A stretch of DNA of 62,715 bases, counting the filler, from Nemertoderma westbladi (lineage: Eukaryota > Animalia > Xenacoelomorpha), in NCBI GenBank assembly GCA_032718475.1. It is 3 parts of 3 records of this genome, joined end to end, with 100 filler letters (N's around TTAATTAATTAA, not from the genome) between each part and the next. Parts side by side here need not be neighbours in the genome. Positions count along the whole stretch, not along the records: positions 27,298 to 51,639 come from JAUCBJ010004889.1; 2 more parts are not named here. One strand, written 5' to 3'. A program made the translations under genes and the position numbers. How positions within the stretch are numbered: the stretch's first letter is position 1; the number at the start of each line of letters is the position of its first letter. Below are positions 3,481 to 60,605 of this stretch, one piece after another. The notes under the pieces were generated by a model. The model was not told the origin of the DNA. It did not search any database and saw nothing but the letters and a program-made list of their open reading frames with translations.

Positions 3481-3651
3481 TAATGTAAAACTAAAAAATG
3501 CCTTACTTAACTAAATAATCCTAGTTAATAGCTTTACAATGACAGTTAAGCGTGTAAGGGCAAACTGAAATTGACCTCTGTTTTTTACAACCAGTTTAAC
3601 GCAAACAGAAAGCATCACTCATTGATATTTTGGGAAGGGCGTTTTCGTGTT

Positions 3652-6600: not shown

Positions 6601-6893
6601 GGCGCGGTTACATCGTCCTGTACAAAGGGCGCGGTTACATCGTCCTGTACGAAGGGCGCGGTTACATCGTCCTGTACGAAGGGCGCGGTTACATCGTCCT
6701 GTACGAAGGGCGTGGTTACATCGTCCTGTACGAAGGGCGCGGTTACATCGTCCTGTACGAAGGGCGCGGTTACATCGTCCTGTACAAAGGGCGCGGTTAC
6801 ATCGTCCTGTACGAAGGGCGCGGTTACATCGTCCTGTACGAAGGGCGCGGTTACATCGTCCTGTACGAAGGGCGCGGTTACATCGTCCTGTAC
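3652..6893. repeat. 27-bp minisatellite GGTTACATCGTCCTGTACGAAGGGCGC, ~120 copies
   Basis: Tandem array; the 9-aa periodicity in all ORF frames confirms a 27-bp unit. Occasional 24- and 26-bp units. Confidence 0.97.
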
Positions 6894-10843: not shown

Positions 10844-12394
10844 GACAATAAGAATAACGTAACTCTATTGATAACCGGTGGTCCGCGAAACCAACACGCC
10901 AAATATTCTAATAATTCAAAGATTCCAAATAAAATATAAAGTATATAATATTGTTATGATCTCCTCAATTCGATAAAATAACTAAAACATTAACAAAACT
11001 ATTTCTGTATTTTAAATTACTGAATTACAGTACAGCAGTAACGTACCGGTACGGTACTGGATGTAAAATTTAATAAAGTAGGCGATTTTCTCCCGTGATA
11101 TTCTGTCCGCCTTAATTCCGTAATTAATTTTGTGCTTCTTTCTAATAGTCCTACATTCTTTTCTTATCTGCTTATTGAATAAACTATTTTATCTGTACAA
11201 TATTCTGCTGTGGCTGTACTGCTGCTGTGCTGTACTCAGATACCTGGATAATTGCAGAATTGTTAATATGATGCTATTTTTTGGATAATCATTCTACATG
11301 TTCTAACAGGCATACAACAACAACAGTACAAATTATGATTCAGTGGATCTTTCTTAGCGAACCCGAACCCAATGCCGTACAACACTCTGCCGTCAGATCT
11401 ATCTTTCGCACTTTCTACCACTAAATTTAGTGACGGAAGGAGAGACTTACCGTATTAACAGTGTACCGGTATTTATTAGGTGTAATGTAATAAACTGATG
11501 AATACAGAAATAGTGAGCGAACTTTCATACACTACACTGTCATCGTCATCTATAAATACAGAAATATAAAGTGGGAAAAAGATAATGTAACTTTATTAGA
11601 TAAATAAAATAATTTGGAAAGAATTCCTTCTTGTCGCAATTTATGATTTATATTTGACAGAATTTAAACTAAACTAGGCAATATACAGACAGGCCTATAC
11701 TGCTATAGGCCTACTATAATTATTGTCTGTTTGAGAACGGAATATATGGATATAATAATACCTGAAGCAAATTAATTTGTATAACTACTGAGACCGTAAG
11801 CCGAAGTAGTTATACATGATTTATTTGCTGAAGGTATTTAAGTATTAATAATTAGTGAAATATTATGAGAATATAGGCCTACTAGCTAGTAATCGATTGT
11901 AGGCCTACTAAAAAACTATATATTTAAAGCGCTGCTACGCAAGTTGCAACTGCGATGGAAATAGCTAAACTTGGAACTTAATCTTCACGTTTTGTACTGA
12001 TCTGCTGATTTTTGGAAAGAATAAACCTACCGTACAGCCGTACCGCATACCGGTAACGAATTTCAATTTCACTCCATAATATTTTCCTTACTGCCTTATG
12101 CCATTTTCTTTTTAGTCTGTGTGGATTTGCGCAATAATAAAGTACGTCACACTTGTTTTTAAACAACTGATCAGCATTTTTGACAAACATACGATTAGGA
12201 CTGTTTTACTATAATCTAATACGTAACTCAAATACTCTCACTGTATATTAATAATACAGTAATTATAATACTGTAATAGAACAGCAAACCTTACCGTATT
12301 ATTTTATTTATTCTTATAATAATGCCCAATGCCATAACTACTGAACTAGGCTTAGTAGGCTTCCCTCTAAATATAGAAATAAATTATTAATATT

Positions 12395-16356: not shown

Positions 16357-19300
16357 TTTGTAGGTCCTTTGGGTTGTAGGTGCTGTGGGTTGTAGGTGCT
16401 GTAGGTTGTAGGTGCTGTGTGTTGTAGGTGCTGTGGGTTGTAGGTACTGTGGGTTGTAGGTACTGTGGGTTGTAGATCCTATGGGTTGTAGGTACTGTGG
16501 GTTTAGGTGCTGTGGGTTGTAGGTGCTGTGGGTTGTAGGTGCTGTGGGTTGTATGTGCAGTGGGTTGTAGGTGCTGTGGGTTGTAGGTGCTGAGGGTTGT
16601 AGGTGCTGTAGGTTGTAGGTGCTGTGTGTTGTAGGTGCTGTGGGTTGTAGGTACTGTGGGTTGTAGGTACTGTGGGTTGTAGATCCTATGGGTTGTAGGT
16701 ACTGTGGGTTTAGGTGCTGTGGGTTGTAGGTGCTGTGGGTTGTAGGTGCTGTGGGTAGTAGGTCTTGTGGGTTGTAGGTGCTGTGGGTTGTAGATGCTGT
16801 GGGTTGTAGGTGCTGTGGGTTGTAGGTCCTATGGGTTGTAGGTGCTGTGGGTTGTAGGTGCTGTGGGTTGTAGGTGCTGTTGGTTGTAGGTCCTATGGGT
16901 TGTAGGTCCTATGGGTTGTAGGTACTGTGGGTTGTAGGTGCTCTGGGTTGTAGGTGCTGTGGGTTGAAGGTGCTGTGGGTTGTAGGTGCTGTGGGTTGTA
17001 GGTGCTGTGGGTTGTATGTGCAGTGGGTTGTAGGTGCTGTGGGTTGTAGGTGCTGTGGTTTGTAGGTGCTGTGGGTTGTAGGTGCTGTGGGTTGTAGGTG
17101 CTGTGGGTTGTAGGTGCTGTGGGTTGTAGGTGCTGTGGGTTGTAGGTCCTATGGGTTGTAGGTGCTGTGGGTTGTAGGTGCTGTGGGTTGTAGGTGCTGT
17201 GGGTTGTAGGTCCTATGGGTTGTAGGTCCTATGGGTTGTAGGTGCTATGGGTTGTAGGTGCTGTGGGTTGTAGGTGCTGTGGGTTGTAGGTACTGTGGGT
17301 TGTAGGTACTGTGGGTTGTAGGTGCTGTGGGTTGTAGGTGCTGTGGGTTGTAGGTCCTATGGGTTGTAGGTGCCGTGGGTTGTAGGTGCTGTGGGTTGTA
17401 GATGCTGTGGGTTGTAGGTGCTGTGGGTTGTAGGTGCTGTGGGTTGTAGGTCCTATGGGTTGTAGGTGCCGTGGGTTGTAGGTGCTGTGGGTTGTAGATG
17501 CTGTGGGTTGTAGGTGCTGTGGGTTGTAGGTGCTGTGGGTTGTAGGTACTGTGGGTTGTAGGTGCTGTGGGTTGTACGTGATGTGGGTTGTAGGTGCTGT
17601 GGGTTGTAGGTACTGTGGGTTGTAGGTGCTGAGGGTTGTAGGTGCTGTGGGTTGTAGGTGCTGTGGGTTGTAGGTGCTGTGGGTTGTAGGTACTGTGGGT
17701 TGTAGGTGCTGAGGGTTGTAGGTGCTGTGGGTTGTAGGTGCTGTGGGTTGTAGGTGCTGTGGGTTGTAGGTCCTATGGGTTGTAGGTGCTGTGGGTTGTA
17801 GGTGCTGTGGGTTGTAGGTCCTATGGGTTGTAGGTGCTGTGGGTTGTAGGTGCTATGGGTTGTAGGTACTGTGGGTTGTAGGTGCTGTGGGTTGTAGGTG
17901 CTGTGGGTTGTAGGTGCTGTGGGTTGTAGGTGCTGTGGGTTGTAGGTCCTATGGGTTGTAGGTGCTGTGGGTTGTAGGTCCTATGGGTTGTAGGTGCTGT
18001 GGGTTGTAGGTGCTGTGGGTTGTAGGTCCTATGGGTTGTAGGTGCTGTGGGTTGTAGGTGCTGTGGGTTGTAGGTCCTATGGGTTGTAGGTGCTGTGGGT
18101 TGTAGGTGCTGTGGGTTGTAGGTCCTATGGGTTGTAGGTGCTGTGGGTTGTAGGTGCTGTGGGTTGTAGGTCCTATGGGTTGTAGGTGCTGTGGGTTGTA
18201 GGTGCTGTGGGTTGTAGGTCCTATGGGTTGTAGGTGCTGTGGGTTGTAGGTGCTGTGGGTTGTAGGTACTGTGGGTTGTAGGTGCTGTGGGTTGTAGGTG
18301 CTGTGGGTTGTAGGTGCTGTGGGTTGTAGGTCCTATGGGTTGTAGGTGCTGTGGGTTGTAGGTCCTATGGGTTGTAGGTGCTGTGGGTTGTAGGTGCTGT
18401 GGGTTGTAGGTGCTGTGGGTTGTAGGTCCTATGGGTTGTAGGTGCTGTGGGTTGTAGGTCCTATGGGTTGTAGGTGCTGTGGGTTGTAGGTGCTGTGGGT
18501 TGTAGGTGCTGTGGGTTGTAGGTCCTATGGGTTGTAGGTGCTGTGGGTTGTAGGTGCTGTGGGTTGTAGGTCCTATGGGTTGTAGGTGCTGTGGGTTGTA
18601 GGTGCTGTGGGTTGTAGGTCCTATGGGTTGTAGGTGCTGCGGGTTGTAGGTGCTGTGGGTTGTAGGTCCTATGGGTTGTAGGTGCTGTGGGTTGTAGGTG
18701 CTGTGGGTTGTAGGTCCTATGGGTTGTAGGTGCTGTGGGTTGTAGGTGCTGTGGGTTGTAGGTACTGTGGGTTGTAGGTGCTGTGGGTTGTAGGTGCTGT
18801 GGGTTGTAGGTCCTATGGGTTGTAGGTCCTATGGGTTGTAGGTGCTGTGGGTTGTAGGTCCTATGGGTTGTAGGTGCTGTGGGTTGTAGGTGCTGTGGGT
18901 TGTAGGTGCTGTGGGTTGTAGGTCCTATGGGTTGTAGGTGCTGTGGGTTGTAGGTGCTGTGGGTTGTAGGTCCTATGGGTTGTAGGTGCTGTGGGTTGTA
19001 GGTGCTGTGGGTTGTAGGTCCTATGGGTTGTAGGTGCTGTGGGTTGTAGGTGCTGTGGGTTGTAGGTCCTATGGGTTGTAGGTGCTGTGGGTTGTAGGTG
19101 CTGTGGGTTGTAGGTGCTGTGGGTTGTAGGTCCTATGGGTTGTAGGTGCTGTGGGTTGTAGGTGCTGTGGGTTGTAGGTCCTATGGGTTGTAGGTGCTGT
19201 AGGTTGTAGGTGCTGTGTGTTGTAGGTGCTGTGGGTTGTAGGTACTGTGGGTTGTAGGTACTGTGGGTTGTAGATCCTATGGGTTGTAGGTACTGTGGGT

Positions 19301-21605
19301 TTAGGTGCTGTGGGTTGTAGGTGCTGTGGGTTGTAGGTGCTGTGGGTAGTAGGTCTTGTGGGTTGTAGGTGCTGTGGGTTGTAGATGCTGTGGGTTGTAG
19401 GTGCTGTGGGTTGTAGGTGCTGTGGGTTGTAGGTCCTATGGGTTGTAGGTGCTGTGGGTTGTAGGTGCTGTGGGTTGTAGGTCCTATGGGTTGTAGGTGC
19501 TGTGGGTTGTAGGTGCTGTGGGTTGTAGGTGCTGTGGGTTGTAGGTGCTGTGGGTTGTAGGTCCTATGGGTTGTAGGTCCTATGGGTTGTAGGTGCTGTG
19601 GGTTATAGCAGTAGGTGCTGTGGGTTGAAGGTGCTGTGGGTTGTAGGTGCTGTGGGTTGTAGGTGCTGTGGGTTGTATGTGCTGTGGGTTGTAGGTGCTG
19701 TGGGTTGTAGGTACTGTGGGTTGTAGGTCCTATGGGTTGTAGGTGCTGTGGGTTGTAGGTGCTGTGGGTTGTAGGTGATGTGGGTTGTAGGTCCTATGGG
19801 TTGTAGGTCCTATGGGTTGTAGGTGCTGTGGGTTGTAGGTGCTGTGGGTTGTAGGTGCTGTGGGTTGTAGGTGCTGTGGGTTGTAGGTGCTGTGGGTTGT
19901 ATGTGCTGTGGGTTGTAGGTACTGTGGGTTGTAGATGCTGTGGGTTGTAGATGCTGTGGGTTGTAGGTGCTGTGGGTTGTAGGTGCTGTGGGTTGTAGGT
20001 GCACTATGGGTTGTAGGTCCTATGGGTTGTAGGTGCTGTGGGTTGTAGATGCTGTGGGTTGTAGGTGCTGTGGGTTGTAGGTGCTGTGGGTTGTAGGTGC
20101 TGTGGGTTGTAGGTGCTGTGGGTTGTAGGTGCTGTGGGTTGTAGGTGCTGTGGGTTGTAGGTCCTATGGGTTGTAGGTGCTGTGGGTTGTAGGTGCAGTG
20201 GGTTGTAGGTGCTGTGGGTTGTAGGTCCTATGGGTTGTAGGTCCTATGGGTTGTAGGTGCTGTGGGTTGTAGGTGTTGTGGGTTGTAGGTGCTGTGGGTT
20301 GTAGGTGCTGTGGGTTGTAGGTGCTGTGGGTTGTAGGTACTGTGGGTTGTAGGTACTGTGGGTTGTAGGTACTGTGGGTTGTAGGTGCTGTGGGTTGTAG
20401 GTACTGTGGGTTGTAGGTACTGTGGGTTGTAGGTACTGTGGGTTGTAGGTACTGTGGGTTGTAGGTGCTGTGGGTTGTAGGTACTGCGGGTTTTAGGTGC
20501 TGTGGGTTGTAGGTGCTGTGTGTTGTAGGTGCTGTGGGTTGTAGGTGCTGTGGGTTGTAGGTGCTGTGGGTTGTAGGTCCTATGGGTTGTAGGTGTCGTG
20601 GGTTGTAGGTGTTGTGGGTTGTAGATGCTGTGGGTTGTAGGTGCTGTGGGTTGTAGGTGCTGTGGGTTGTAGGTCCTATGGGTTGTAGGTGCCGTGGGTT
20701 GTAGGTGCTGTGGGTTGTAGATGCTGTGGGTTGTAGGTGCTGTGGGTTGTAGGTGCTGTGGGTTGTAGGTGCTGTGGGTTGTAGGTGCTGTGGGTTGTAG
20801 GTGCTATGGGTTGTAGGTGCTGTGGGTTGTAGGTGCTGTGGGTTGTAGGTACTGTGGGTTGTAGGTGCTGTGGGTTGTAGATGCTGTGGGTTGTAGGTGC
20901 TGTGGGTTGTAGGTGCTGTGGGTTGTAGGTGCTGTGGGTTGTAGGTGCTGTGGGTTGTAGGTGCTGTGGGTTGTAGGTGCTGTGGGTTGTAGGTCCTATG
21001 GGTTGTAGGTGCCGTGGGTTGTAGGTGCTGTGGGTTGTAGATGCTGTGGGTTGTAGGTGCTGTGGGTTGTAGGTGCTGTGGGTTGTAGGTGCTGTGGGTT
21101 GTAGGTACTGTGGGTTGTAGGTGCTGTGGGTTGTAGATGCTGTGGGTTGTAGGTGCTGTGGGTTGTAGGTGCTGTGGGTTGTAGGTGCTGTGGGTTGTAG
21201 GTGCTGTGGGTTGTAGGTGCTGTGGGTTGTAGGTGCTGTGGGTTGTAGGTGCTATGGGTTGTAGGTGCTGTGGGTTGTAGGTGCTGTGGGTTGTAGGTAC
21301 TGTGGGTTGTAGGTGCTGTGGGTTGTAGGTCCTATGGGTTGTAGGTGCCGTGGGTTGTAGGTGCTGTGGGTTGTAGATGCTGTGGGTTGTAGGTGCTGTG
21401 GGTTGTAGGTGCTGTAGGTTGTAGGTGCTATGGGTTGTAGGTGCTGTGGGTTGTAGGTGCTGTGGGTTGTAGGTCCTATGGGTTGTAGGTACTGTGGGTT
21501 GTAGGTGCTGTGTGTTATAGGTGCTGTGGGTTGTAGGTACTGTGGGTTGTAGGTGCTGTGGGTTGTAGGTGCTGTGTGTTGTGTGTTGTAGGTGCTGTGG
21601 GTTGT
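16357..21605. repeat. 16-bp G/T-rich satellite GGTTGTAGGTGCTGTG (variant GGTTGTAGGTCCTATG), ~325 copies
   Basis: Continuous 5.2-kb tandem array; the 16-aa period (3 x 16 bp) in the minus-strand ORF confirms the unit length. Confidence 0.97.
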
Positions 21606-27297: not shown

Positions 27298-30200
27298 CTG
27301 GTTGGTGATGTGTGCATTTGTACTTGACACAATGTACCCGGCGTAGCATTCTTGTGAATGTGCCATCCAGAGAGTTGGTGTCCTCCCTCAGCAGTTAGAG
27401 CCCAGCATGGACTCCCGTAGAAGAGGTACTGGAACTACTGCTGCTCTAAATAATCGGACCTTAAGTTTCCGATTAATTCTAGGTGACTTCCTAATCCTGG
27501 AAAGCCTATTCAAGGCTGCCCATGCCTTTCTTTCCCTTACGTATTCGAAGGTCCTCACCTGACTTCCGGATCCATGATCCCAGGTAACAGAAGTCGTCCA
27601 CATGCTCAAGCATACCATCCTTTGAGCTTATGCTCATCCGATCAGAGACTTGCTGAGGACTTTCAAACTTAACTGTCAAAATTTTGGTCTTTTTGGAGTT
27701 AATAAAAAGACCAACACTAGAAGCAGCATGTTCTAATGAGCTGAGGAGCCGTTGGGCTCCCTCTAGTGATTCTGAGAGTACTCCTAAGTCATCAGCAAAG
27801 TCTAGATCAGTTTGGTACTTGGCAGGATTTCCTTGACTTCTGGAGCCAGTAGGTGGTGTTACCATCACCCCATCATCATTATGATGATCTAAGGACATGC
27901 GTAGAACATAGTCAACCACAATAATGAACAAGAATGGTGCAAGTGTGTCTCCTTGGAGGACGCCCCATAACACTTCAAATGGTTCTGTGTCACCGTCAAC
28001 AGAGACACAAATGTTGTCGAACCATCGTATACTGATCTGATTGCTGCAATAATTTCATCAGGAATCCCATATAATGAAAGTATGCTGAACATACGTGAGC
28101 GAGGGACTGAATCAAAGGCCTTGAAGAAGTCAACAACCATAAGAGCAAGATGCCTGTGTTTCTTTTTTGATAACTCTTCACTTATCCTTCTAAGTGCCAA
28201 AATGGGCTCCATGGTCCCACGACCTTTACAAAACCCATTCTGATTTCCATGGAGCAGCCTCTCAATGGGATCCCTGTTGCGATTTAACCCTATTAGTACC
28301 GGGCTATAAAATGCTGTACAAATACCGGGGGGGGGGGGGGGGGGGGGGGTCATATTGACCCTTCCCTCTAAAATCTACAAATATTAACGAAAACGTCTGA
28401 TTTTTTGTTTGTACGTAGGTATCACTAGTCTGGATCCGACCGAAAAAAAAAATTTCGAAAAAATATACTGGGGTGGTAATATTGCAGCACCAAAATTACA
28501 AGTAGTGCACAATTTTCACAAAATTTGAAAGTTACATTTTTCGGCTAATTGTTTTTCAATACAGGTTTTCTGGGGCGCAAAATACATTGGAAAATATTTA
28601 AAAATGATATGATTACCATAAATGGCTGTTTAGTCCTCTATGCGTAGGAAAAAAAATGAAAAAAACAAGTAACCAGCACTTTTCAGTTAGAACACAAAAT
28701 TTTTAATTAACTTATACGATGCTATAGATTCACATTTTCAGGTTTTCTAGGGCGCTGATTCTAATGGAATACATTTCAAATATGCAAGGTCATTGCTACT
28801 TGTATTTTTCGGCGTAATTTGGCAAATTTTGGTGCTAGCACCAAATTTCGTACCCATCACCAAAAAGTACAAGTTTGCGATGTCCAGTGTTGTTTTTATT
28901 GATTCCATCAGATTCCGGACCCTCATAAACCCGTATAACACAAGAAACAAGATGAGACTATCTAGTGATCAATTTACTCATTTTCCAAAATTTGGTGCTG
29001 GCACAACAATTTTCACCCACCGGCGAAAAATACAAGTTTGAAAACTCTTATGAAATTTTTACTGATTCCATTGAATTCAGAACCCTAACAAACCTGTATA
29101 ACGCAAGAAACAAGATGAAACAATCAATTGATATATTTGATGGTTTTCAAAATTTGGTGCTAGTACCACATTTTGCACCCACTTCCAAAAAATACAAGTT
29201 TGAGATGTCTAGTTCGATAATTATATATTCAATTGTATTTAGAACAGCCATAAACCTCTAAAATGCAAGAAATAAATTGTCACAAGCAATTTTATCTATT
29301 GAATGGATTTTCAAAATTTCGTGCTAGCACCAAAATTTGCACACAGCACCGAAAAATACAAGTTTGATACGCTTGGTGCAACTCGTATATATTTCTTCGA
29401 AACCAGAACCCCCCAAAAACCCCAATGGCGTAAAAAACAAGTTTCAAACAATCAATTTACAAAATTGACATATTTCAAAATTTGGTGCTGGTACCAAAAT
29501 TTGGCACCCGCCGAAAAAAACAAGTTTGAAATTTCTAAATCAATTTATATGAATTCCATCCAATTGCTAACACTAAAAAACCGGTGTAAATCAAAAATAG
29601 AGATGTTACAATTAATATTTAATGAAATGTAATTTTCAAAAAACGTCTCAAAAAAAAAAGTGCCAAAAGTAGGGTTAAAAAATGGTGCTATAACTCGAAA
29701 ACTACCAAATATGTTTGAAAACGGTTTTCACTACTAGGAAGACAATAGATTTTTAGGAAAAGTCATAAAATTCCAGATTCCCACCTGCGTTTGTTTCAGA
29801 ATTATAATAAAAAAACCACGGGGGAGGTCATATTGACCCCCCCCCCCCCCCGGGTTTAATAGGAGTAATAGAATTCTACTGTATAGCTTTGCAGCAATGG
29901 AGATCAATGAGATTCCCCGAAAAGAACCATAGAGTGTTTGGTTGCCCTTCTTAGAAACTGGCACTAACTTATTTGTTTTCATTTCTTGTGGGACTCTTGT
30001 TGTTCGGTACATGTCTACTATGATGGGATAGATGAGCTTTAAACACTCAGGTATTTTAGATCTACTGAGCCATCTTCTCCACTGGCACGATTGGTCTTAA
30101 TGCTCTTGATTAATATGTTATTAATAATATATTAATATGATGAATAATGATTAATATTATGATTAAAATGTACTATAAAATGAACAATGTCCACAGATAT

Positions 30201-34865: not shown

Positions 34866-34938
34866 CGCTGGCTAACTAGCCCCAGAGCGCTTTTGCACTC
34901 TGTCCACTAGCTACTTAGTTTGTCTCAGGACTGACTAT

Positions 34939-36732
34939 CGATCAATCTGCTTACTGGGCGGAAAAGCCAACCAACCACCAAGGAAGGTTAAGGCTGAATC
35001 ACCAGCCGATCGCCTCAATGGTTGGAAAGCCCACTTTGAGAAGCTCCTCAATAATGACAGGGTATTGCCTGATAACTTTATAGAAGTAAAAGTGTCTGAG
35101 TTTGTACTCCCAGATATTCCCATTGGCGATATCTCCTTTGCAGAAGTGAAGGCTGCTGCAAAGAGCATTAAGACCAATCGTGCCAGTGGAGTAGATGGTG
35201 TTCCCCCTGAGGTCTTTAAAATAGCTGAGTGTTTAAAGCTCATCTATCCCATCATAGTAGACATGTACCGAACAACAAGAGTCCCACAAGAAATGAAAAC
35301 AAATAAGTTGGTGCCAGTTCCCAAGAAGGGCAACCTAACACTCTATGGTTCTTTTCGGGGAATCTCATTGATCTCGATTGCTGCAAAGCTATACAATAGG
35401 ATTCTATTAAATCGCATCAGGGATCCCATTGAGAGACTGCTCCGTGGAAATCAGAATGGGTTCCGTAAAGGTCGTGGGACCATGGAGCCCATTTTGGCAC
35501 TTAGAAGGATAATTGAAGAGTTATCAAAAAAGAAAGACAGGCATCTGGCTGTTATCTTTGTTGACTTCTTCAAGGCCTTTGATTCAGTCTCTCGTTCATG
35601 TATGTTCAGCATACTTTCATTATATGGGATTCCTGATGAAATTATTGCAGCAATCAGATCAGATCAGTATATGATGGTTCGACAACATTTGTGTCTACTG
35701 TTGACGGTGACACAGAACCATTTGAAGTGTTATGGGGCATCCTCCAAGGAGACACACTTGCACCATTCTTGTTCATTATTGTGGTTGACTATGTTCTACG
35801 CATGTCCTTAGATCATTATAATGATGATGGGGTGATGATAACTCCACCTACTGGCTCCAGAAGTCGAGGAAATCCTGCCAAGTACCTAACTGATCTAGAC
35901 TTTGCTGTTGACTTAGGAGTACTCTCAGAATCATTAGAGGGAGCCCAACGGCTCCTCAGCTCATTAGAACATGCTGCTTCTAGTGTTGGTCTTTTTATTA
36001 ACTCCAGAAAGACCAAAATTCTGACAGTTAACTTTGAAAGTCCTCAGCAAGTCTCTGATCGGATGAGCATAAGCTCAAAGAATGGTATGCTTGAGCATGT
36101 GGACGACTTCTGTTACCTGGGATCATGGATCCGGAAGTCAGGTGAGGACCTTCGAATACGTAAGGGAAAGGCATGGGCAGCCTTGAATAGGCTTTCCAGG
36201 ATTTGGAAGTTACCGATAATTAAACGGAAACTTAAGGTCCGATTATTTAGAGCAGCAGTAGTTCCAGTACTCCTCTACGGGAGTCCATGCTGGGCTCTAA
36301 CTGCTGAGGACACCAAATCTCTGGATGGCACATTCACAAGAATGCTACGCCGGGTTCATTGTGTCAAGTACAATGCACACATCTCCAACCAGACACTATA
36401 TAACATTGGTGGTGTCTCATTGGTTCCCCCAAGCTTGACACTAGAACAAAATCGCCTCCGCTTTGCAGGACATTGCTTTCGCCGTGAGGACCAGCCAGTG
36501 CATAATCTTGTACTTTGGCAGCCTCATGGAGTGAATAAGCATGGTGGACAGCCCATGACTTTGTTGAGACGCATCTTAAAGGACACTGGCCTTGAAGATG
36601 CGGATGATCTAGCAAATGTCATGGGTGATAGGGAGTTGTGGCGGTGCAATTTTGTCGATAAGCCGGCACAGCATTCTTAAAAATGCAGCTGCAATGCAGC
36701 ATGCCGATCCTAGTAGTAGTAGTAGTAGTAGT
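34939..36732 (+). mobile_element. RTE-clade LINE copy B, 5'-truncated, with (TAG)n tail and 12-bp TSD AGGACTGACTAT
   Basis: RT ORFs 35065-35811 and 35691-36680, frameshifted by an AGATC duplication near 35660. The catalytic FADD reads FAVD. TSD at 34927-34938 and 36733-36744. Confidence 0.93.
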
Positions 36733-48673: not shown

Positions 48674-49729
48674 ACTACTACTAGGATCGGCATGCTGCAT
48701 TGCAGCTGCATTTTTAAGAATGCTGTGCCGGCTTGTCAACAAAATTGCACCGCCACAACTCCCTATCACCCATGACATTTGCTAGATCATCCACATCTTT
48801 AAGGCCAGTGTCCTTTAAGATGCGTCTCAAGAAAGTCATGGGCTGTCCACCATGCTTATTCACTCCATGAGGCTGCCAAAGTACAAGATTATGCACTGGC
48901 TGGTCCTCACGGCGAAAGCAATGTCTTGCAAAGCGGAGGCGATTTTGTTCTAGTGTCAAGCTTGGGGGAACCAATGAGACACCTCCAATGTTATATAGTG
49001 TCTGGTTGGAGATGTGTGCATTGTACTTGACACAATGTACCCGGCGTAGCATTCTTGTGAATGTGCCATCCAGAGATTTGGTGTCCTCAGCAGTTAGAGC
49101 CCAGCATGGACTCCCGTAGAGGAGTACTGGAACTACTGCTTCTCTAAATAATCGGACCTTAAGTTTCCGATTAATTCTAGGTGACTTCCAAATCCTGGAA
49201 AGCCTATTCAAGGCTGCCCATGCCTTTCCCTTACGTATTCGAAGGTCCTCACCTGACTTCCGGATCCATGATCCCAGGTAACAGAAGTCGTCCACATGCT
49301 CAAGCATACCATCCTTTGAGCTTATGCTCATCCGATCAGAGACTTGCTGACTGTCAGAATGTCAGTTGTTAACTGTCAGAATTTTGGTCTTTCTGGAGTT
49401 AATAAAAAGACCAACACTAGAAGCAGCATGTTCTAATGAGCTGAGGAGCCGCTGGGCTCCCTCTAATGATTCTGAGAGTACTCCTAAGTCATCAGCAAAG
49501 TCTAGATCAGTTAGGTACTTGGCAGGATTTCCTCGACTTCTGGAGCCAGTAGGTGGAGTTATCATCACCCCATCATCATTATGATGATCTAAGGACAAGC
49601 GTAGAACATAGTCAACCACAATAATGAACAAGAATGGTGCAAGTGTGTCTCCTTGGAGGACGCCCCATAACACTTCAAATGGTTCTGTGTCACCGTCAAC
49701 AGTAGACACAAATGTTGTCGAACCATCGT
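48674..49729 (-). mobile_element. RTE LINE copy C (3' part with short TAG tail)
   Basis: ORFs 49362-49799 and 48714-49331 are nearly identical to copy B; the tail reads ACTACTACTAGGATC on +. Confidence 0.92.
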
Positions 49730-50250
49730 GGAATGGCAAACCAGGGTGTGGTATTTGCCCCGAGAGCTGACTCAGCAAAAAGCACCCCCCAACCCCCACT
49801 ATTGATTACATTAGTAATGCGGAGGTCCGGCCACTAGAGGCCAGTGGAATTACCGGACACAATCGGCTTCACAGGCGTCAGTTATCTCCTGACCGGCTGC
49901 CTGTGCCTGTGCCCCCTACTGGAGAGAGAGCAGCCAACAATTCTTTGAGTTCCTTTCCTGATGACCTTTCTGGCCCAAAGTCTGGGTCACCAGGGAGGCC
50001 AGATTGTGAGGGGGAGAGGGATTCTGGAGTTGGAGGCTACTCTCATGTTCCACCCCGACCAACAAAGCCATTGGTGAATCTGAGTCACTAGACTAGCCTC
50101 AGTAAACACCTTAAAACTCGGGTCCCCAATGCGACAAGGTGAGCTGACTGCCTTGGCAGATGAGCTTTCTCTTAGTGCAGTGGGTGGTCAAGAGCACCGA
50201 ATGCAGACTGGACAGACTGATGAGGTTCTGATTAAAAACATGGGGGGCGG
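49730..50250 (+). mobile_element. RTE LINE 5' UTR and start of APE endonuclease, opposite in orientation to copy C
   Basis: Begins with the RTE-type 5' hairpin ATGGCAAACC...TTTGCC and later encodes ELTALADELSLSAVGGQEHR (APE QEHR motif). Confidence 0.65.
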
Positions 50251-50286
50251 TTGGCGACTCACCCTATAGCGAATAAATCTTCTACT

Positions 50287-50380
50287 GCCCTGGTAGCTCT
50301 GTGGTCTTAAGACACACAGTCGGCTGATGATAACCGGAAGTTTGAAACTTAGGTACCGGGTTCGAGCCCCAATAGGGGGC
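50287..50380 (+). mobile_element. tRNA-derived SINE head with over-long A-B box spacing
   Basis: A box TAGCTCTGTGG (50294-50304), B box GGTTCGAGCCC (50359-50369), partial acceptor pairing GCCCT/GGGGC. Confidence 0.65.
50320..50359 (+). ncRNA. Minimal type I hammerhead ribozyme motif (slightly degenerate)
   Basis: Stem I TCGG, CTGATGA, stem II (T)AAC-CGGAA-GTT(T), GAAAC, TTAG loop, GT, A (cleavage site), stem I' CCGG. Confidence 0.6.
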
Positions 50381-50586
50381 GGTTGATATTTTTCGCTATG
50401 GAGAGGAGAGCATTATCATAATGTACTATAACATACATTTATTCGCCGTCACCACCCCACAACAATTCATTTATAATTAATTAACTCGCATGGACGGCAT
50501 ACGGGGTTACAGCGGTTTCTACAACACTGTATAATAGTTATTCTTTGAGGCATGGTTGCCACTTCTGGCAGACCACGGGAATAACA

Positions 50587-51630
50587 TGAGCTTATGCTCA
50601 TCCGATCAGAGACTTGCTGAGGACTTTGAAAGTTAACTGTCAGAATTTTGGTCTTTCTGGAGTTAATAAAAAGACCAACACTAGAAGCAGCATGTTCTAA
50701 TGAGCTGAGGAGCCGCTGGGCTCCCTCTAATGATTCTGAGAGTACTCCTAAGTCATCAGCAAAGTCTAGATCAGTTAGATACTTGGCAGGATTTCCTCGA
50801 CTTCTGGAGCCAGTAGGTGGAGGTATCATCACCCCATCATCATTATGATGATCTAAGGACATGCGTAGAACATAGTCAACCACAATAATGAACAAGAATG
50901 GTGCAAGTGTGTCTCCTTGGAGGACGCCCCATAACACTTCAAATGGTTCTGTGTCACCGTCAACAGTAGACACAAATGTTGTCGAACCATCGTATACTGA
51001 TCTGATTGCTGCAATAATTTCATCAGGAATCCCATATAATGAAAGTATGCTGAACATACGTGAGCGAGAGACTGAATCAAAGGCCTTGAAGAAGTCAACA
51101 AAGATAACAGCCAGATGCCTGTCTTTCTTTTTTGATAACTCTTCAATTATCCTTCTAAGTGCCAAAATGGGCTCCATGGTCCCACGACCTTTACGGAACC
51201 CATTCTGATTTCCACGTAGCAGTCTCTCAATGGGATCCCTGATGCGATTTAATAGAATTCTATTGTATAGTTTTGCAGCAATCGAGATCAATGAGATTCC
51301 CCGAAAAGAACCATAGAGTGTTAGGTTGCCCTTCTTGGGAACTGGCACCAACTTATTTGTTTTCATTTCTTGTGGGACTCTTGTTGTACGGTACATGTCT
51401 ACTATGATGGGATAGATGAGCTTTAAACACTCAGGTATTTTAAAGACCTCAGGGGGAACACCATCTACTCCACTGGCACGATTGGTCTTAATGCTCTTTC
51501 CAGCAGCCTTCACTTCTGCAAAGGAGATATCGCCAATGGGAATATCTGGGAGTACAGACTCAGACACTTTTACTTCTATAAAGTTATCAGGCAATACCCT
51601 GTCATTATTGAGGAGCTTTTCAAAGTGGGC
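50587..51630 (-). mobile_element. RTE LINE copy D (uninterrupted RT segment, FADD intact, 3' end missing)
   Basis: ORF 50467-51594 matches copy B up to MSISS, then diverges into unrelated sequence. Confidence 0.92.
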
Positions 51631-52495: not shown

Positions 52496-52679
52496 ATTGG
52501 CTGGAGGTTACGAAGCTCTAGACCTCGGTAACATGGGAGACGCTCTGGTTGATTTCTCTGGGGGGATCAGTGAAGAAATGAACTTGGATGATTTTCGGGA
52601 TCGGAATAAAATGGAAGAACTCTGGAAGATTTTAGTGCTCGCTTTCCAGAGGGATGCATTACTGGGCTGTTTTGTAGCT
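52496..52679 (+). CDS. Internal exon of a calpain (CysPc catalytic domain; resembles calpain-5/tra-3)
   Basis: tttctcactgcAG|ATTG...GCT|GTAAGT. It translates as LAGGYEALDLGNMGDALVDFSGGISEE...LWKIL...ALLGC, matching calpain KL.G.YEAL..G...DALVDFTGGVSE. Confidence 0.88.
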
Positions 52680-53484
52680 GTAAGTAAAATATATATGAAT
52701 TATTGGGTTGTTTGTAGCTTTAAGTAAAATATATATGAATTATTGGGTTGTTTTGTAGCTTTAAGTCAAATATATACGAATTATTGGGTTGTTTGTAGCT
52801 GTAAGTAAAATATATGCGAATTATTGGGTTGTTTATGTTGCTCTAAATAAAATATATACCAATTATTGGGGTATTATGTTGCTGTGAGTAAAATATATAT
52901 AAATTATTGGGTTGTTTGTAGCTTTAAGTAAAATATATACGAATTATTGGATTATTTTGTAGCTGTGAGTAGAATATATATACGAATTATAGGTTATTTG
53001 TAGCTGTAATTAAAATATATACGAATTATTGGGTTGTTTGTAGCTTTAAGTAGAATATATACGAATTATTGGGTTGTTTTGTTGCTGTGAGTAAAATATA
53101 TACGAATTATTGGGGTATTATGTTGCTGTGAGTAAAATATATATAAATTATTGGGTTGTTTGTAGCTTTAAGTAAAATATATACGAATTATTGGGTTATT
53201 TTGTAGCTGTGAGTAGAATATATATACGAATTATAGGTTATTTGTAGCTGTAATTAAAATATATACGAATTATTGGGTTGTTTGTAGCTTTAAGTAAAAT
53301 ATATACGAATTATTGGGTTGTTTTGTTGCTGTGAGTAAAATATATACTAATTATTGGGTTGTTTGTAGCTTTAAGTAAAATATATACGAATTATTGTGTT
53401 GTTGTGTTGCTGTGAGTAAAATATATATGAATTATTGGGTTGTTTGTAACTCTGAGTAAATAATATATACGAATTATTGGGTTG
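52662..53484. repeat. ~40-42-bp minisatellite spanning the calpain exon/intron junction, ~20 copies
   Basis: Unit GGGTTGTTTGTAGCT(G/T)T(A/G)AGTAAAATATATACGAATTATT; the first unit is the exon end plus donor. Confidence 0.92.
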
Positions 53485-54058
53485 TGTGACGGGATCGGAG
53501 ATCCCGACCTGGTAAATATACAGTACTACGCGGCACCGTTCTGCTTTAGGGATGGTGCTAGCAGGTTGGCCGAGGCCGATGTAGGAAAAAACAATGGGAG
53601 TTCGATGTTGTCTCTTGATATTGTAAATGCCGAAATGATAGCACAATAATAAGCAGAAGTACAGATGTTACCGGTCTGCACTAAAACTAAGTAACTGGGT
53701 AAACTGAATAATCAAACCAGTAACGGGATAATATATGTATGATTACTTCACCCCTACATTACTTTGGCCTCTTACCTAGTGGATGCTCTCCTTCGCCCCC
53801 ATTGGCTAACAACCTACCACACACCCTTCCACTCTCTGGGAGTGTTTCCCCTCTGTTGCTAGCCCCTGCTAGCTGTGTCCCCTCCGAGGTGGTTTGACCT
53901 CTAACCTCCCTTTGTGTGTGGCTTCGGGGTTCGTACTGTCCCCCGATGTTGGTTGTGATACGAGATTAATTATTGCTAATCTCGTATCTCCAACATATTG
54001 CTGAAAATGCCACTATCCCATTTATGAGGGTAATGAGGCGGAATTGAATCCGCTTACA
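53485..54058 (-). mobile_element. 3' LTR of BEL/Pao element 2 (TG...CA), preceded on the minus strand by a polypurine tract
   Basis: On the minus strand GGGGGGGAG (54059-54067) is followed by TGTAAGCG...CCGTCACA. It abuts the minisatellite abruptly. Confidence 0.75.
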
Positions 54059-57000
54059 CTCCCCCCCATGCTATCTTCCCGGTCGGAGGATAGCATCAAC
54101 TACAAGTGCGCTTCAATTCCGCTGGAACCCGATCTACTATCGGGTGTGGGGTGGAGTTCTTTTCTCGGAGTCGGCTTTCCAGGCCGCTCCCTCTGGGTAT
54201 GATATTACTACCCCTTCTTGGTGCAACCGCAACCTATGTTGCACCAAGACATCTGACGTCTCTGTTTGAGACAATTGTGGACTCTTCACACAATTTTCAA
54301 AAACTATCACTCTGAATTCACTCTCGGACCCTTCTGTCCCTTACTCTCTCTATCTCACTGCTCGCTCCCCACACTTGAATTGCACTCCTCTCACTTTCTC
54401 TCATCGTGTCAACACCTCCTCTCCATTCTTCCCCCCGATTCCCCATTCTCGTTTTCATTCCTTATACACTTATTGGGCCCCACACATGTGCGCATCATGT
54501 TCGTGGGAGCCGTCTAAGTCCCGTCCTGTCGCCCTAGTCAATTAGTCCCCAGTCCCAGTAGCTAATTGGAAAAAGGTTGTACTTGACTACGGTGCATATT
54601 ATACCTCCCTTCCTTCTTTCGTGCCAATATCCACTAACTTTATTTTAGATTTTGTTTTATCTGTATTTTCCCCCTATTCTGTGCTATCATCGTACTTACC
54701 TTCTACTTGTTTCTTACTACGTACTTACTACTTACTACTATGGTATGTTGTATCCATATACCATATTCTCTACTCTATTACTGCTAACTCTACTAACTCA
54801 ACTAACTCCACTAACTCTACTAACTCTACTAACTCTACTAATTCCAACGGTACTATGTACCCTCCTACTACCCTCGTGGTATGTCTCTATACCACACTCC
54901 CTATACTTCTAACTCTGATGGTACTATGTACCCTATTACTCCCGTGGTATGTCTCTATACCACACTCCCTATACTTCTAACTCTCCTCTTACTCTTGCTA
55001 ACTTCTATTAACTTTCTAACTACTACTAACTTCTGCTAACTTTCTAACTACTACTAACTTCTGCTAACTTTCTAACTACTACTAACTTCTGCTAACTTTC
55101 TAACTATTACTAACTTCTGCTAACTTTCTAACTATTACTTAGTGCTACGTACTATCTACTACTATCACTTTCTGAGTTTCTGCTTTCTCACTTTATTTTA
55201 TTATTTTTATTTTTTTTTATATTTTGTGTGGGAAGGGCGTCTCGCCCTCAATCCCACCCCCTCAGTCCAACACTTGGACGACTAAACTCTATGCTGCCCC
55301 TTCTAATAGGCAGCACTTCCCTACAGCCCTCCTGTAGGTCTTTCTACCTTTCGCTCCTATCTTACCCACTATCCGCACTTCCACCGATCGGACTCTTCCG
55401 TCCTCGTCGGGGTAAGTGTCTAGTACTCTCGCTAGCCTCCACTGATTGTTGATGATTGTGTCGTCAGTGACGATCACTAAGTCACCTTTCTTTAACTCTC
55501 TAGTGGTGTTTCTCCACTTGCTCCTCCTGTGTAGCGTGGGTAGGTATTCCTCGACCCACCTCCTCCAATACTCGGCGCTTATCGCCTTGGCAACTTTCCA
55601 ACTCTGTCGGGAGTGTATGTCATCTGGGTCTACACCCCGCATGTCGATGGTCGCCAGCCTTTCCATCAGAAAGTGGCTCGGCTCGGTGTCGTCTAGTGAT
55701 TCCGGGTCGTCATTCTGTATAGCGGTCTGCTATTAATGATTCCCTCACACTTAGCTAGCACCGTTCTTAGAATATCCTCTGTCACCATGTGGGTGTTCAT
55801 CAACTTCGTCATCAGACGTTTGGAACTACCCACAAGCCTCTCGACGCATCCTAAAGTATGTGGCGCATACGGCATCCTCCTTTCCCACTTCACCTGTCGT
55901 CTCCTCATGGCTGCCCTGACCTCTTCTCCTTCTAGGATGTCCAAGGCCTCCGCCAACTCGTTATCCGCTCCCACAAAGTTGGTTCCATTGTCGGAATAGA
56001 TCACTGCGATTGTTCCACCTTTGCAGTCTCTAAATTTTTCTAAGGCATTGATGAATGCCGATGCCGTGGCATCTTGGGCGAGTTCTATTCCTACCGCCCT
56101 CGTGTTGTTACATACGAAGATGCTGCCGTATCGTTTCTCCGTGTGTCGCATCACCTTGATCTTAATCGGCCCGAACATGTCTACACTGCAGTGCGTGACC
56201 AGCAGGGTCGTGCTGTCTCACCCTACTGGCCGGTAATGGCGCCATCTCCTGTACGGCCCTATCCTTTCTTGTCCATCGGCAGGTCTGGCACTGCCCCCTA
56301 CCGCCTTTACCTTCTTCCTTAGCTGTGCGATCCAGAAGGTCCTCCGTATCTCTGTGAGGGTCTGGTTGGTGCCTCCGTGCAATATCGACTTGTGGGAGTC
56401 CCAAATGATCTGGTGGACTATCGGCGATCTGTTGGGGATGATAATGGGTTTTGGTGGGATGATAAGGCTGTTGTTATTCAGCACTATGGAATTCATCACC
56501 AGAATCCCGTCATCGTTGAGTTGTGGTGACAGCGTGATGAGCTCGCTGTCCCGACGAAGATGTTCGATCGATCCAGTTCGTCGGCGTAGTTCCTTCTCTG
56601 TTCGTATCGTATCACGGCCTTGGCCGCTCCATCCAGATCGATGCTTGGTTTCCTCTTGGCGTCCTTGCCAACTCCCTTGAGGAAATCCCTGTAGGCCCTC
56701 CAGTACGCTACCAACTTCTTGGTCTTGTACCAGCTGGAGCTGTAGCTGAGTAGCCTATCCGTCGGGTTGTCACATGGTTCTTCTGATTTCGGTTGCACCT
56801 CCCTGACCTCCCTCACCATCTGATTATTTATCTGAATCTTCTCCCTCTTCCCCTGGTGCTATCTCCTCTGAGCCCGGGTCCACCTTCTTCATTGGTGGCC
56901 TGGCCGATCTATCGTTCAGGAAGTGTGGCCCGTGCTGCCACAACACTTCCTTCTTTGAGAAAGTGTGGCGTGCCACGCCCCTCAATAACAAGTCTGCTGT

Positions 57001-60000
57001 GTTCTCGTCCGTAGGGCAGTAGTGCCACCTTTCCAAGTCTGTCGTCGCCCTTATTTCGTCCACCCTATTCGCGACGAATATAGGGTTATCTCGTCTTCAC
57101 GTTGTGCAGCCACCCGAGCACTACCGTGGAGTCTGTCCAGTAGTGTGTTTCCACTATGTTGGGAATATTGTCCATCAAGTAGGCTGTGGCCCTTACACAC
57201 CATGCACACCGATGTCTGTGACATCCTAAATGGAATTTTGGTTTTGATTGGGCCGCTTAGTGTCCATCTGAATGGTGTGAGAATTGCCATCGGATCGCGC
57301 TGTCTGTCTTCCCCGAAGATCGTCTGTACTCTTTCGTGAGCCGTCGGGCAGTCCATTCCCACTATGATGGATACCTTCCTGACGTCCACCTCCGGTATCA
57401 AGAAATCGATGTTGTCCAGGAATCTGTATTGCTCGACCTCGATGTTGGTTGGTCGCCTGGCGTTTATGTTGATCAATTCTATCACCTGGATGGGGTCGAT
57501 GGTCGCCCCATAGTCACATCCCGGTGCTATCGCTGATATCTGGCACCTTCCCATCCTCATCTCCAGGACCTCATCTTTGCTGGAGATGGTAGTTACCGCC
57601 ATCCAACTTGGCCTCGTCCTTAACCCTATCTCCTCGGCCACCCAATTCTCCACCAATGTGAAGGCTGCTCCGCTGTCGACCAGCATCAAGGTAGTAACTG
57701 ATTGACCGCCCTCTCCTATTACCCTCACCGGTACCACCCCCAGTAGCACCGTTCCCCTTTTCTTCGCCCCTATGGTGCTTGTCGCCATTGTTTGACCTTT
57801 GCCTTGATCGAATCTTACTGGTGTCTCCTTACACTCTTCAACCTTGTGTCCGCCTACCACACATCAGTGAAAAATTCCATTCTTATCCGCATAGGCTTTC
57901 CGATCTTGTTCGGGTAATGCCTGCCAATGCTTACAGTCCATGGTCTTATGGGTTCTCTCTTTATGCAATTGACATTTGTATTCTTGGTTGTAACGTTCCC
58001 TATATAGCTCTACACGTATTGCGCGTAGGTTCACATCTACCGGTTTAGTGTTTTATTTGGGTTTGGCCTACTGGGTGTGTTGGGATTATATTTGTTCGTA
58101 TTGTTATTTTGTCCCTGTTTGTGCCACAGTCTGGCCCCACTCCCAGCTATCTGTTGACTTGCAGTCCCCTGTGTCGCCGCGTATGGTAGGGATTGTCTTA
58201 ATTTTGGCAAGGCATTTGCCGCATTGTGCTCTGGTTTCAGCCTGTTGTATTCGGCCCTCAGCGCCTTCCCCAGACTATCCTCGCTGTAGACTGGGTCCAT
58301 GATTAACTCTGCTTCGTAGTTGAGGAAGTTCGACATTTCCTCTAGGCCCGGTTCCGCACCTTTCTTCTCCCGGGTGGAGAAGGCGATCTTCCTCCATTTG
58401 TTGCGTAGCCATATTGGCAGTGCCTGCGCTATCGTGGTGATGTTATTAGATGCGTTGAGTTCGTATGGCGCGTCTAGCGTCTTCAGCACGATTAAGGCCT
58501 TCTCAACCTTATTCGCGAAGGTCTTTATACTAACAGGGTTATCCTGTAGGCCACCCGATTTTATCCCCCTTAAGGTCTGCCGGATGATCTTGGCAGGGTG
58601 TCCGTATTCCCTGTCTAGGGCCCGCCATGCAGTCATGAAGCCACCCTCGATGCCCTGATACTGCCTCACGATGTCGTACGCTGGGCCTCCTGTGTATACC
58701 TGTAGATATTTTAGGCACTCCGCCTGCGTCAGGTTCTTAGTTTAATATCTCGTTGCTGTACATGCGTCGGAATTGCAGGTATTCTTCCAGTCTGCTTCCG
58801 TCGAATTTAAATGGCTCTACTGGTGGTAGCTCGATCCTGGTCTTGAGCGCATCGATAAGTGTTGCCATTCCTATTGCCTGTGCTTCCGATGGGTTCGAGG
58901 GATGCTGTATACAGATTCTCCCGTTGGGTGTGGTCTGCCCGTCGGGCCTGTTGACTTTCTTTGAGTCGGATATACCATTGGCGGTAACGGCCCCCTCCAT
59001 ATCTCAGTGTCGCAAGATCTGTTCTCCTCCAGGGGGTTCGATGTTCGTATTCCCGCTTGAGTGTATTGTTGATATTGTAATGGGGGAATGTCACCCTGCC
59101 CCCCCCCCCCCCCCCACCGGTGGTATATTTGCTACTGGGGTTGATGTTAATATATTGGGGCCCATAGACCTATCTGCAATAACTCTCCCCTCCCCTGGAT
59201 ATATGTTATGTCCCTGCATATTATAGTCATACTGCTGTGCCGGTACTGGTATAGGCCTATCCACTTCTTGCCTACCTACCGGTATATACGCTGCGACTTC
59301 CGGATCTAATCCCGTCGTTTGTGCTACCCTATTGCCTACACTATCTCTCCCAGCATGGCCTATAGTATGTGCAGTAAGGCCTACAGTATGTCCTGCAGTC
59401 TGCATGTGTCCTTCCGGACCGAAGTTTAACCTTCTCGAATAATCCGAGAAGTCCTCCACGTGACAACCGTACTCTCGATCGGCAGCTATATCCCGTCGGG
59501 AAGTCTCTCTTCGATCCACTCTCCTGTTCTCGTCCTCGTACCGGTACATCCTGTACCCCTCTCCCGGCGTATGATATATCTCGCCAGGCTGCGTCTCTCC
59601 GGGGCGACGGCAATCTCCCGGAGTTTGACCCCACTGACTTTCCAACTCCATCTCTACTACCGATGGTTCGCTATCCGTTCTCGCTCTCCAGTCGCTCGTA
59701 GCAACGCTTCTTCTATTCTCTTCGCTTCTTCTCTCTTCAGTATAGCATCCCCGCTCATGAGATCTCTCTTCGACCTCCCGGTTAAACTCCACTGTTCTTC
59801 TTCTGTCTTCCGACTAGGCTCGACGTCTCATCGCTCGCCCGCTCACGACGCCAACCTCTCTCTCTCTACCAGGTTGGACGCTCCTGGGGATATTCGCAAT
59901 CCCCCTACTATTCTCCGTCGTCGGGTGCCGCGGTTCATCTGACATGGTTCGCCCCGCGCATTATCCGTCGATGCTTGTGGGGCATTCTCTGCCCCCCCCC

Positions 60001-60344: not shown

Positions 60345-60530
60345 ATTAATAGCACCATTATCAACAACATTATTGCTTAAATTATTTAAATTTGATGAAT
60401 TATTTCACTATAAGGTAGCATTTGTAGTTTAACTTTAACGTAAAAACTTTTGAAAATCCGACGTATTTTGATTAAATTACAGTAATGTAATATGCCTATT
60501 CATATTTGTACACATAAAACCCTTAGGTAC

Positions 60531-60605
60531 TCTCGTGGCGTAGTGGTCAGATGGTTAAGGCGTTGGTTACATTACGTAGGTTACGAGTTCGAATCCCAGT
60601 CGGGA
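60531..60605 (+). mobile_element. tRNA-like SINE head
   Basis: A box TGGCGTAGTGG and B box GAGTTCGAATCCC; does not form a clean cloverleaf. Confidence 0.55.

Follow-up and report, generated by a model that had tools for sequence, protein, structure and literature searches.

Do a tRNA-derived promoter and a self-cleaving ribozyme occupy the same bases of one repeat, and if so, to what kind of element does such a repeat belong? This question was raised by a locus in the genome of Nemertoderma westbladi (assembly GCA_032718475.1), where a first-pass annotation had described a SINE carrying a hammerhead ribozyme within its tRNA-like head. The window, that is, the whole stretch of DNA that was analysed, comprises 62,715 nt. 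We favour, with moderate confidence, the reading that this locus holds a solo and decayed member of a many-copy repeat of approximately 358 nt, a family that probably represents a non-LTR retrozyme equipped with its own Pol III promoter.

Hammerhead and Promoter Boxes of the tRNA-Like Head

A complete type I hammerhead was read between the A box and the B box on the plus strand of window positions 50287–50380, and the motifs named by the first-pass annotation were all present on this strand. In tRNA numbering, the order of the head was acceptor 5′ strand, A box, D-arm-like segment, hammerhead, positions 49–53, B box, acceptor 3′ strand and a run of five T. The acceptor-stem 5′ strand (50287–50293) made five pairs with 50376–50380. 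The Pol III A box TAGCTCTGTGG (50294–50304) differed from that of the family at 50300, with a private T in place of A, and the D-arm-like segment (50296–50313) had three of its four pairs in the family majority and two of four in the studied copy. The hammerhead comprised 42 nt (50314–50355) and stood, as had been claimed, in place of the anticodon arm and the variable loop. The Pol III B box GGTTCGAGCCC (50359–50369) followed 54 nt after the A box, and the presence of both boxes in a tRNA-like head is a SINE-type feature. The stretch 50368–50380 held the T-stem 3′ strand (CCCAA, positions 61–65), in which only CCC had partners, together with the acceptor 3′ strand. Eight nucleotides behind the tRNA 3′ end, TTTTT (50389–50393) formed a Pol III terminator-like run, which was the only run of at least four T on the plus strand in 50256–50600 and had no family variant of 2% or more.

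Stem I was formed by 50318–50323 and 50356–50361; all six pairs were present in the family majority, and one was broken at 50319 in the studied copy. The catalytic core C3–A9 (CUGAUGA; CTGATGA in DNA) occupied 50324–50330. Stem II (50331–50343) had a U10.1·U11.1 (T·T) mismatch at its base, three base pairs and a 5-nt loop, CGGAA, and the core G12–A15.1 with the 2-bp stem III and the loop TTAG occupied 50344–50354 (GAAA at 50344–50347). The octamer 50347–50354 was self-complementary in the family majority, but not in the studied copy. The elements C3–A9, G12–A14, A15.1–U16.1 and the NUH triplet were all found in type I order, and no variant of 2% or more occurred in them in the contigs of three runs; a G10.1–C11.1 pair closing helix II was found neither in the studied copy nor in the family. 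A50355, at the end of the triplet GTA (GUA), is the predicted A17, with cleavage expected 3′ of this base; we take this assignment from established hammerhead numbering. The last base of the stem II loop (loop 2) is A and the first base of the loop 1 strand is U, as would be expected for a reverse Hoogsteen contact between the two loops.

The 3′ strand of stem I (50356–50361) corresponded to tRNA positions 49–54, which agreed with the earlier claim that stem I and the T-stem have bases in common. The B box begins with the last three bases of this strand, and CCGGG at 50356–50360 (positions 49–53) overlapped the start of this box. The hammerhead had also been likened to the minimal ones of Penelope-like elements. 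The helix sizes were canonical instead (6 bp in helix I, four positions in helix II and 2 bp in helix III) and matched those of the canonical metazoan type I motif as described in PMC4209133. According to PMC3088659, there are natural hammerheads with U·U at the base of stem II, and no other mismatch is tolerated as well at this place. The axolotl HHR_Amex2, from a 350-bp retrozyme, is defined by U·U; 22% was cleaved in 1 h as a monomer, and cleavage was far better as a dimer (PMC7229834).

A hammerhead descriptor with the core and all three stems had one match in the window, with the B box behind it. When the whole window was shuffled 1,500 times by dinucleotides, the same descriptor had four matches, none of them with a B box, and the plain core pattern had none in 100 shuffles. 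The core-plus-B-box pattern was matched 45 times in metagenome contigs, which served solely as a chance control; none of the 45 had a stem I of at least 4 bp, and the single loose A-box match was without stem I. No match to the core-plus-B-box layout was found in the viral contigs. A chance resemblance to a hammerhead within a tRNA-derived repeat would be compatible with the absence of an Rfam match, with folding predictions that did not return the hammerhead, and with CTGATGAG at 50218 in the neighbouring repeat, where the rest of the core is missing. The shuffles contradict this explanation, as do the family data described below, in which the majority sequence was a better hammerhead than the studied copy at two independent places and the variation followed stem I. 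Its probability is considered negligible.

Comparison with hammerhead covariance models, proposed by the first-pass annotation, returned no Rfam match for the decayed studied copy at E up to 1, nor at E up to 10. ARAGORN reported no tRNA at the locus; the anticodon arm is absent and only three of the five T-stem pairs are formed, unlike in a functional tRNA gene. Hence, standard libraries do not recognise the studied copy.

Two further motifs were seen elsewhere in the window. A hammerhead-like order (CTGATGA ... GAAAC ... GTA, with a possible 3-bp stem III) was present at 3414–3370 on the minus strand; it had no flush stems I and II, failed the hammerhead descriptor and is perhaps a decayed motif. 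A tRNA-like head at 60529–60605 on the plus strand had an A-box-like motif at 60536, a B-box-like motif near 60586 and TTTT behind, with no ARAGORN call and no hammerhead core.

Repeat Family and Its Majority Sequence

Self-comparison revealed no second copy within the window. The family was evaluated via contig pile-ups from public DNA runs, in which contigs were placed at 80% likeness on 50255–50600. Runs X1, X3 and X5 carried one organism label and came from three studies, and the sample behind X1 is possibly that of the window itself. The numbers of contigs were 878 (X1), 521 (X3) and 62 (X5), which bore out the earlier claim of a multi-copy family. Run X4, guessed to be RNA, contributed three contigs and X7 none; these counts have no bearing on expression either way. 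The summed depth at the A box was 8,367 in X1 and 4,967 in X3, compared with approximately 10–40 at single-locus joints. Summed contig depth is not a copy number and was not accepted as one; the data suggest a few hundred copies.

The family majority differed from the studied copy at four head sites, with each majority base accounting for 96–100% of depth. At 50300, the family had A (99.5% in X1, 99.6% in X3 and 220 of 220 depth in X5), which gave an exact A box. The majority base was G at 50310 and C at 50319, the latter giving the 6-bp stem I. At 50349, the family had C in 99.7, 99.7 and 96.1% of depth in the three runs, which gave the palindrome. The family reads ACCTAGGT with a palindromic stem III, and the studied copy is a decayed one that departs from the majority by four private changes in the head; both points had been anticipated. 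Among the three repairs proposed at that time, the palindrome change at 50349 was found in the family, whereas the two changes toward G10.1–C11.1 (50331 and 50343) were not. Neither site had a variant reaching 2% in any of the three runs (X1 bin depths of 115,000 and 222,000), in a variant table that was complete except for eight indel rows and had a threshold of 2% of depth. Therefore, U10.1·U11.1 is the family state. Where covered, the family A box matched the consensus exactly, with one variant near 2%; the family is young, and invariance alone shows little. With its A box, stem I and palindrome all altered by private changes, the studied copy is predicted to be poorly active, probably inactive or weak. 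One X5 contig formed a loose end before 50321, with a different acceptor start and an A box much closer to the hammerhead, which possibly represents a second subfamily with the same layout.

Fold Kept in the Family

Only two sites within 50316–50362, namely 50320 and 50359, were variable in the family (variants of at least 2%, three runs). C at 50320 accounted for 15, 33 and 53% of depth in X1, X3 and X5, respectively, and A at 50359 for 8.0, 2.8 and 2.2%. These sites are the two sides of one U·G pair in stem I, and each single change gives a Watson–Crick pair; the states U·G, U–A and C–G occur in the family. In X5, the depth at 50320 was 465.7, with 245.7 for C; the remaining 220 belonged to a single contig with A50359, hence U–A. 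The only C-bearing X5 contig seen to span both sites was C–G. A50359 would break the tRNA pair 52–62, and no partner change was present at 50369. The family variation followed stem I and A50359 breaks the T-stem, indicating that the ribozyme fold is the fold kept. This evidence is suggestive, concerns one pair only and carries no covariation statistic. The first-pass annotation had envisaged competition between the tRNA fold and the ribozyme fold. The overlap of stem I and T-stem bases was upheld, but the competition appeared lopsided, with a T-stem of three pairs out of five and variation that follows stem I. The CCCAA 3′ strand suggests that the ancestral 5′ strand of the T-stem may have been overwritten to pair with the ribozyme.

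The energies of the two folds were compared with their stems enforced. For the family majority, the hammerhead with the acceptor stem had −22.8 kcal/mol and the tRNA-like fold −12.0 kcal/mol, and the corresponding values for the studied copy were −18.2 and −13.1 kcal/mol. The unconstrained ViennaRNA minima were −31.0 kcal/mol for the family majority and −34.4 kcal/mol for the studied copy, such that neither enforced fold was the minimum, and the pair probabilities of stems I–III were 0.00 in the 95-nt piece. The self-duplex at the stem III palindrome, which is a true palindrome in the majority only, had −13.4 kcal/mol for the family majority versus −8.0 kcal/mol for the studied copy. The double hammerhead had −22.4 and −9.8 kcal/mol, respectively, whereas the minima of the dimers were −27.2 and −30.5. 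Nearest-neighbour models take no account of the core or of tertiary contacts, and with these values the ribozyme may or may not be active.

Unit Boundaries, Joints and Neighbouring Repeats

The body of the studied copy (50266–50587, plus strand) was solo, was cut at both ends, and had 43.5% GC and no ORF of its own. Family depth jumped at 50266–50267 and stopped near 50585; in X1, the summed depth rose from 92 to 7,515 at 50267 and was down to 383 by 50579–50590. One X3 contig closed 50587 to 50266 via 36 nt, which gave the unit of approximately 358 nt. With this length, its GC content and hundreds of contigs, the repeat is small, non-coding and multicopy, within the range of 170–400 nt and below 50% GC. 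The repeat homology reached 21 nt or more beyond the tRNA start on the upstream side, and other copies shared letters further upstream; the element does not begin at the tRNA 5′ end, as a SINE would. Neither an A-tail or simple-repeat tail nor a target duplication was found in the studied copy, which is itself cut at both ends.

The 15 joints listed consisted of three backward joints, six inverted joints and six skips. The backward joints ran from 50581–50584 to 50312–50323, one of them at depth 183 in X5. Joints from 50581–50587 back to 50266–50323 were present in three runs and may reflect tandem units; the studied copy was solo. Partial tandem and inverted insertions (three and six of the 15 joints, respectively) are of the kind known from Penelope pseudo-LTRs; partial tandems with inverted truncated copies are given as hallmarks of Penelope insertion in bioRxiv 2021.04.23.441226. 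The start of the unit upstream of the tRNA head and the tandem and inverted joints fit a non-LTR retrozyme, and a classical SINE less. A joint cluster at 50452–50456 was considered as a reverse-transcription start and rejected; the intervening letters resemble 50429–50451, and the cluster is likely an alignment restart.

"SINE", the label chosen by the first-pass annotation, proved the weaker one on these grounds. A classical LINE-driven tRNA SINE, with the hammerhead in its head and the two folds competing as a switch, would account for the exact A and B boxes, the tRNA-like ends and a dispersed solo copy beside LINE fragments. However, it leaves unexplained that the homology begins upstream of the tRNA, that a terminator follows the head after 8 nt, that the studied copy lacks an A-tail and a target duplication, that the repeat body matched no LINE copy in the window, and that the T-stem has lost pairs without compensation. 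This explanation is very improbable.

The X1 depth around the cut site was 222,000 before and 225,000 after, without a step, so copies mostly do not begin there. The A-box part had a depth of 10,000–12,000 in X1, approximately 20-fold below that of the core and the B box (approximately 220,000), and the loose ends before 50312 and 50321 disagreed among contigs (agreement of 0.48 and 0.56). Many copies may carry another 5′ part, and overlapping short contigs could also account for this depth gap.

A pseudo-LTR of a Penelope-like element, or a short non-autonomous derivative of one, with a captured tRNA promoter was also considered. In this case, uncleaved linear RNA would be copied and cleavage would be dispensable. 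The inverted joints and partial tandems are in line with such an origin, as are copies that cross the cut site intact; Xenopus retrozymes are described as related to pseudo-LTRs (bioRxiv 2026.07.22.740005), and the anole PAc was inserted in vitro without need of cleavage (PMC11167929). The contig that closes the unit on itself after approximately 358 nt tells against it, and so do the canonical helix sizes, since the metazoan hammerheads of Penelope-like elements characterised in PMC4209133 are mostly minimal, with a long helix II and G10.1–C11.1. Furthermore, no Penelope ORF (RT with GIY-YIG) was found among the tested ORFs of the window, and none adjoined the repeat. We regard this origin as improbable.

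The 5′ neighbour (50050–50265, plus strand) is a different repeat outside the unit, with a higher depth (maximum of 839,000 in X1). Elsewhere, this repeat goes on differently behind 50265, indicating that the locus is a chimera or a nested insertion. An A-box-like motif near 50173–50184 and the B-box-like GGTTCTGATT near 50225 were observed in this neighbour. A 14-nt match between the hammerhead element and the upstream repeat was dismissed as not significant, as 19 of 1,000 shuffles were as good. The 3′ neighbour, which abuts the copy and also lies outside the unit, is a LINE reverse-transcriptase fragment (50587–51630, minus strand) with 97.8% identity to the copy at 35029–36077, which has RVT_1. 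No match was found between the repeat body and the LINE copies in the window.

The remainder of the window contained several other features. One young LINE family was represented by four fragments of 95–98% identity with RVT_1 matches (27298–28287, 34876–36720, 48674–49729 and 50587–51630). A broken LTR retrotransposon on the minus strand (55693–59813), which we take to be Bel/Pao-like, had DUF1759, aspartyl protease and integrase matches. Long minisatellites were located at 839–2032, 3653–6893, 16358–21582 and 52658–53485, with periods of 17, 27, 16 and 41/81/122 nt, respectively; long open frames within them were rejected as genes and attributed to repeat artefacts. An Lmx1-like LIM-homeobox ORF of 521 aa at 9299–10864 (minus strand) was apparently intronless and had 43–57% identity over the matched part to annotated relatives, which were distributed across many animal phyla.

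Proposed Mechanism

For a retrozyme with its own Pol III promoter, the following cycle is proposed. With TFIIIC bound to the A and B boxes in DNA, transcription by Pol III would be initiated near 50287. It would mostly end at the five-T run, giving an RNA of approximately 107 nt, and some transcripts would read through into the next tandem unit. The read-through RNA would carry two hammerheads and would be cut after A17, mainly in pairs via the palindromic stem III. The unit-length RNA released in this way would have the B box at its 5′ end, and its 3′ end would lie behind the A box. Its closure by a tRNA ligase would rejoin the split promoter, and the RNA circle may then serve as the template of a Penelope-type reverse transcriptase, with insertions in tandem, permuted and inverted form as the outcome. 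For axolotl monomers, circularisation by RtcB has been achieved in vitro. On the other hand, predicted Xenopus retrozyme dimers were without cleavage in vitro in eight of nine cases, as reported in bioRxiv 2026.07.22.740005.

The weak step in this mechanism is the conserved five-T run at the place where a tRNA gene terminates; unit-length RNA needs Pol III to read through it. The same run, exactly at the termination site, is expected if an ordinary promoter-less retrozyme swallowed a tRNA gene. Its circles would then come from host read-through, on which retrozymes are thought to depend (PMC7761336), the boxes would yield a short terminated RNA or be relics, and the B box would be kept as part of stem I and loop 1. 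Three B-box bases do lie within stem I, and the depth of the A-box part was far below that of the core. However, the A box of the family, where covered, was an exact consensus with its one variant near 2%, and TAGCTCAGT was retained in the X5 contig with the different 5′ part. Moreover, each of the two LTRs of Cassandra contains a Pol III promoter and a terminator, and transcription passes from one LTR into the next (PMC10886601). A promoter-less origin is rated as unlikely, although not negligible.

A bolder form of the retrozyme with its own Pol III promoter was also formulated. The promoter and the ribozyme would be one overlapped sequence with two jobs, with the B box serving as stem I and loop 1. 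The cut would split the promoter, which would be restored only in the circle sealed by tRNA ligase. The abundant 107-nt Pol III RNA would act in trans as the partner half of a double hammerhead and would switch on the cleavage of read-through transcripts. This proposal is speculative and rather doubtful. If true, the element would make its own trans-activator and would attract the ligase by resembling a cleaved pre-tRNA.

Comparison with Known Systems

The family was compared with known systems according to their published descriptions. The metazoan non-LTR retrozymes, above all the axolotl Rtz_353 with HHR_Amex2, are alike in being non-coding repeats of 170–400 nt and less than 50% GC with tandem and solo copies (Cervera and de la Pena, 2020, PMC7229834; Li et al., bioRxiv 10.64898/2026.07.22.740005). 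Rtz_353/HHR_Amex2 also has a canonical type I hammerhead with a 2-bp helix III, a tetraloop and U·U at the base of helix II (PMC7229834), and non-LTR retrozymes have been linked to Penelope pseudo-LTRs (bioRxiv 2026.07.22.740005). The difference is that the ribozyme is flanked here by A and B boxes of tRNA origin, which are exact in the family majority, whereas retrozymes seem to be promoter-less in the account of PMC7761336; circular RNA and cleavage are predictions for the studied family.

The Schistosoma Sm-alpha and Sj-alpha repeats are similar in combining a tRNA-derived Pol III promoter and a type I hammerhead in a short tandem repeat (PMC6765202, PMC2770079). In Sm-alpha, as these sources describe the layout, the promoter precedes the hammerhead, whereas here the hammerhead is inside the promoter. 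Judged from the sequence, the hammerhead of the studied repeat, unlike that of Sm-alpha, replaces the anticodon arm and shares bases with the B box, and a cut would separate the A box from the B box. The hammerheads of Penelope-like pseudo-LTRs are likewise of type I with a palindromic helix III and occur in partial tandem and inverted insertions (PMC4209133; PAc, PMC11167929). The studied repeat differs from those described in PMC4209133 in having no adjoining RT/GIY-YIG ORF in the window, canonical helices, and U·U in place of G10.1–C11.1.

Helenus, Ajax and Cassandra also have an internal Pol III promoter, which derives from tRNA or 5S and lies in a repeated unit that is read from unit to unit (PMC10886601). 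In contrast to the studied repeat, they are LTR elements with a primer-binding site and a short target duplication, and no ribozyme is reported for them in this source, where the word hammerhead occurs once, in a reference. The theta ribozymes of gut phages are also self-cleaving ribozymes tied to tRNA sequence, but they have an HDV-like fold and lie next to phage tRNA genes (PMC10879173) rather than forming a hammerhead within an animal tRNA-derived repeat. In the open-access literature, no description was found of a natural repeat whose hammerhead is enclosed by the A box and the B box; Repbase entries may bear on the point. The architecture is real and belongs to a many-copy repeat, which most likely works as a non-LTR retrozyme with its own split promoter; its new part would be the placement of a hammerhead between the promoter boxes of an otherwise known retrozyme type.

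Animal retrozymes seem to be promoter-less (PMC7761336), and Sm-alpha is the one described Pol III case, with the promoter before the ribozyme. A family with the ribozyme in its promoter offers a direct test of how such elements are transcribed, since the A box, the bases shared by stem I and the B box, and the five-T run can each be altered singly to tell transcription, cleavage and read-through apart. It is this family, rather than the decayed copy studied here, that is of interest. The family may represent a natural hammerhead family of the U·U type outside the amphibians and the conversion of a tRNA scaffold into a ribozyme, in which the 3′ strand of the T-stem persists as a fossil.
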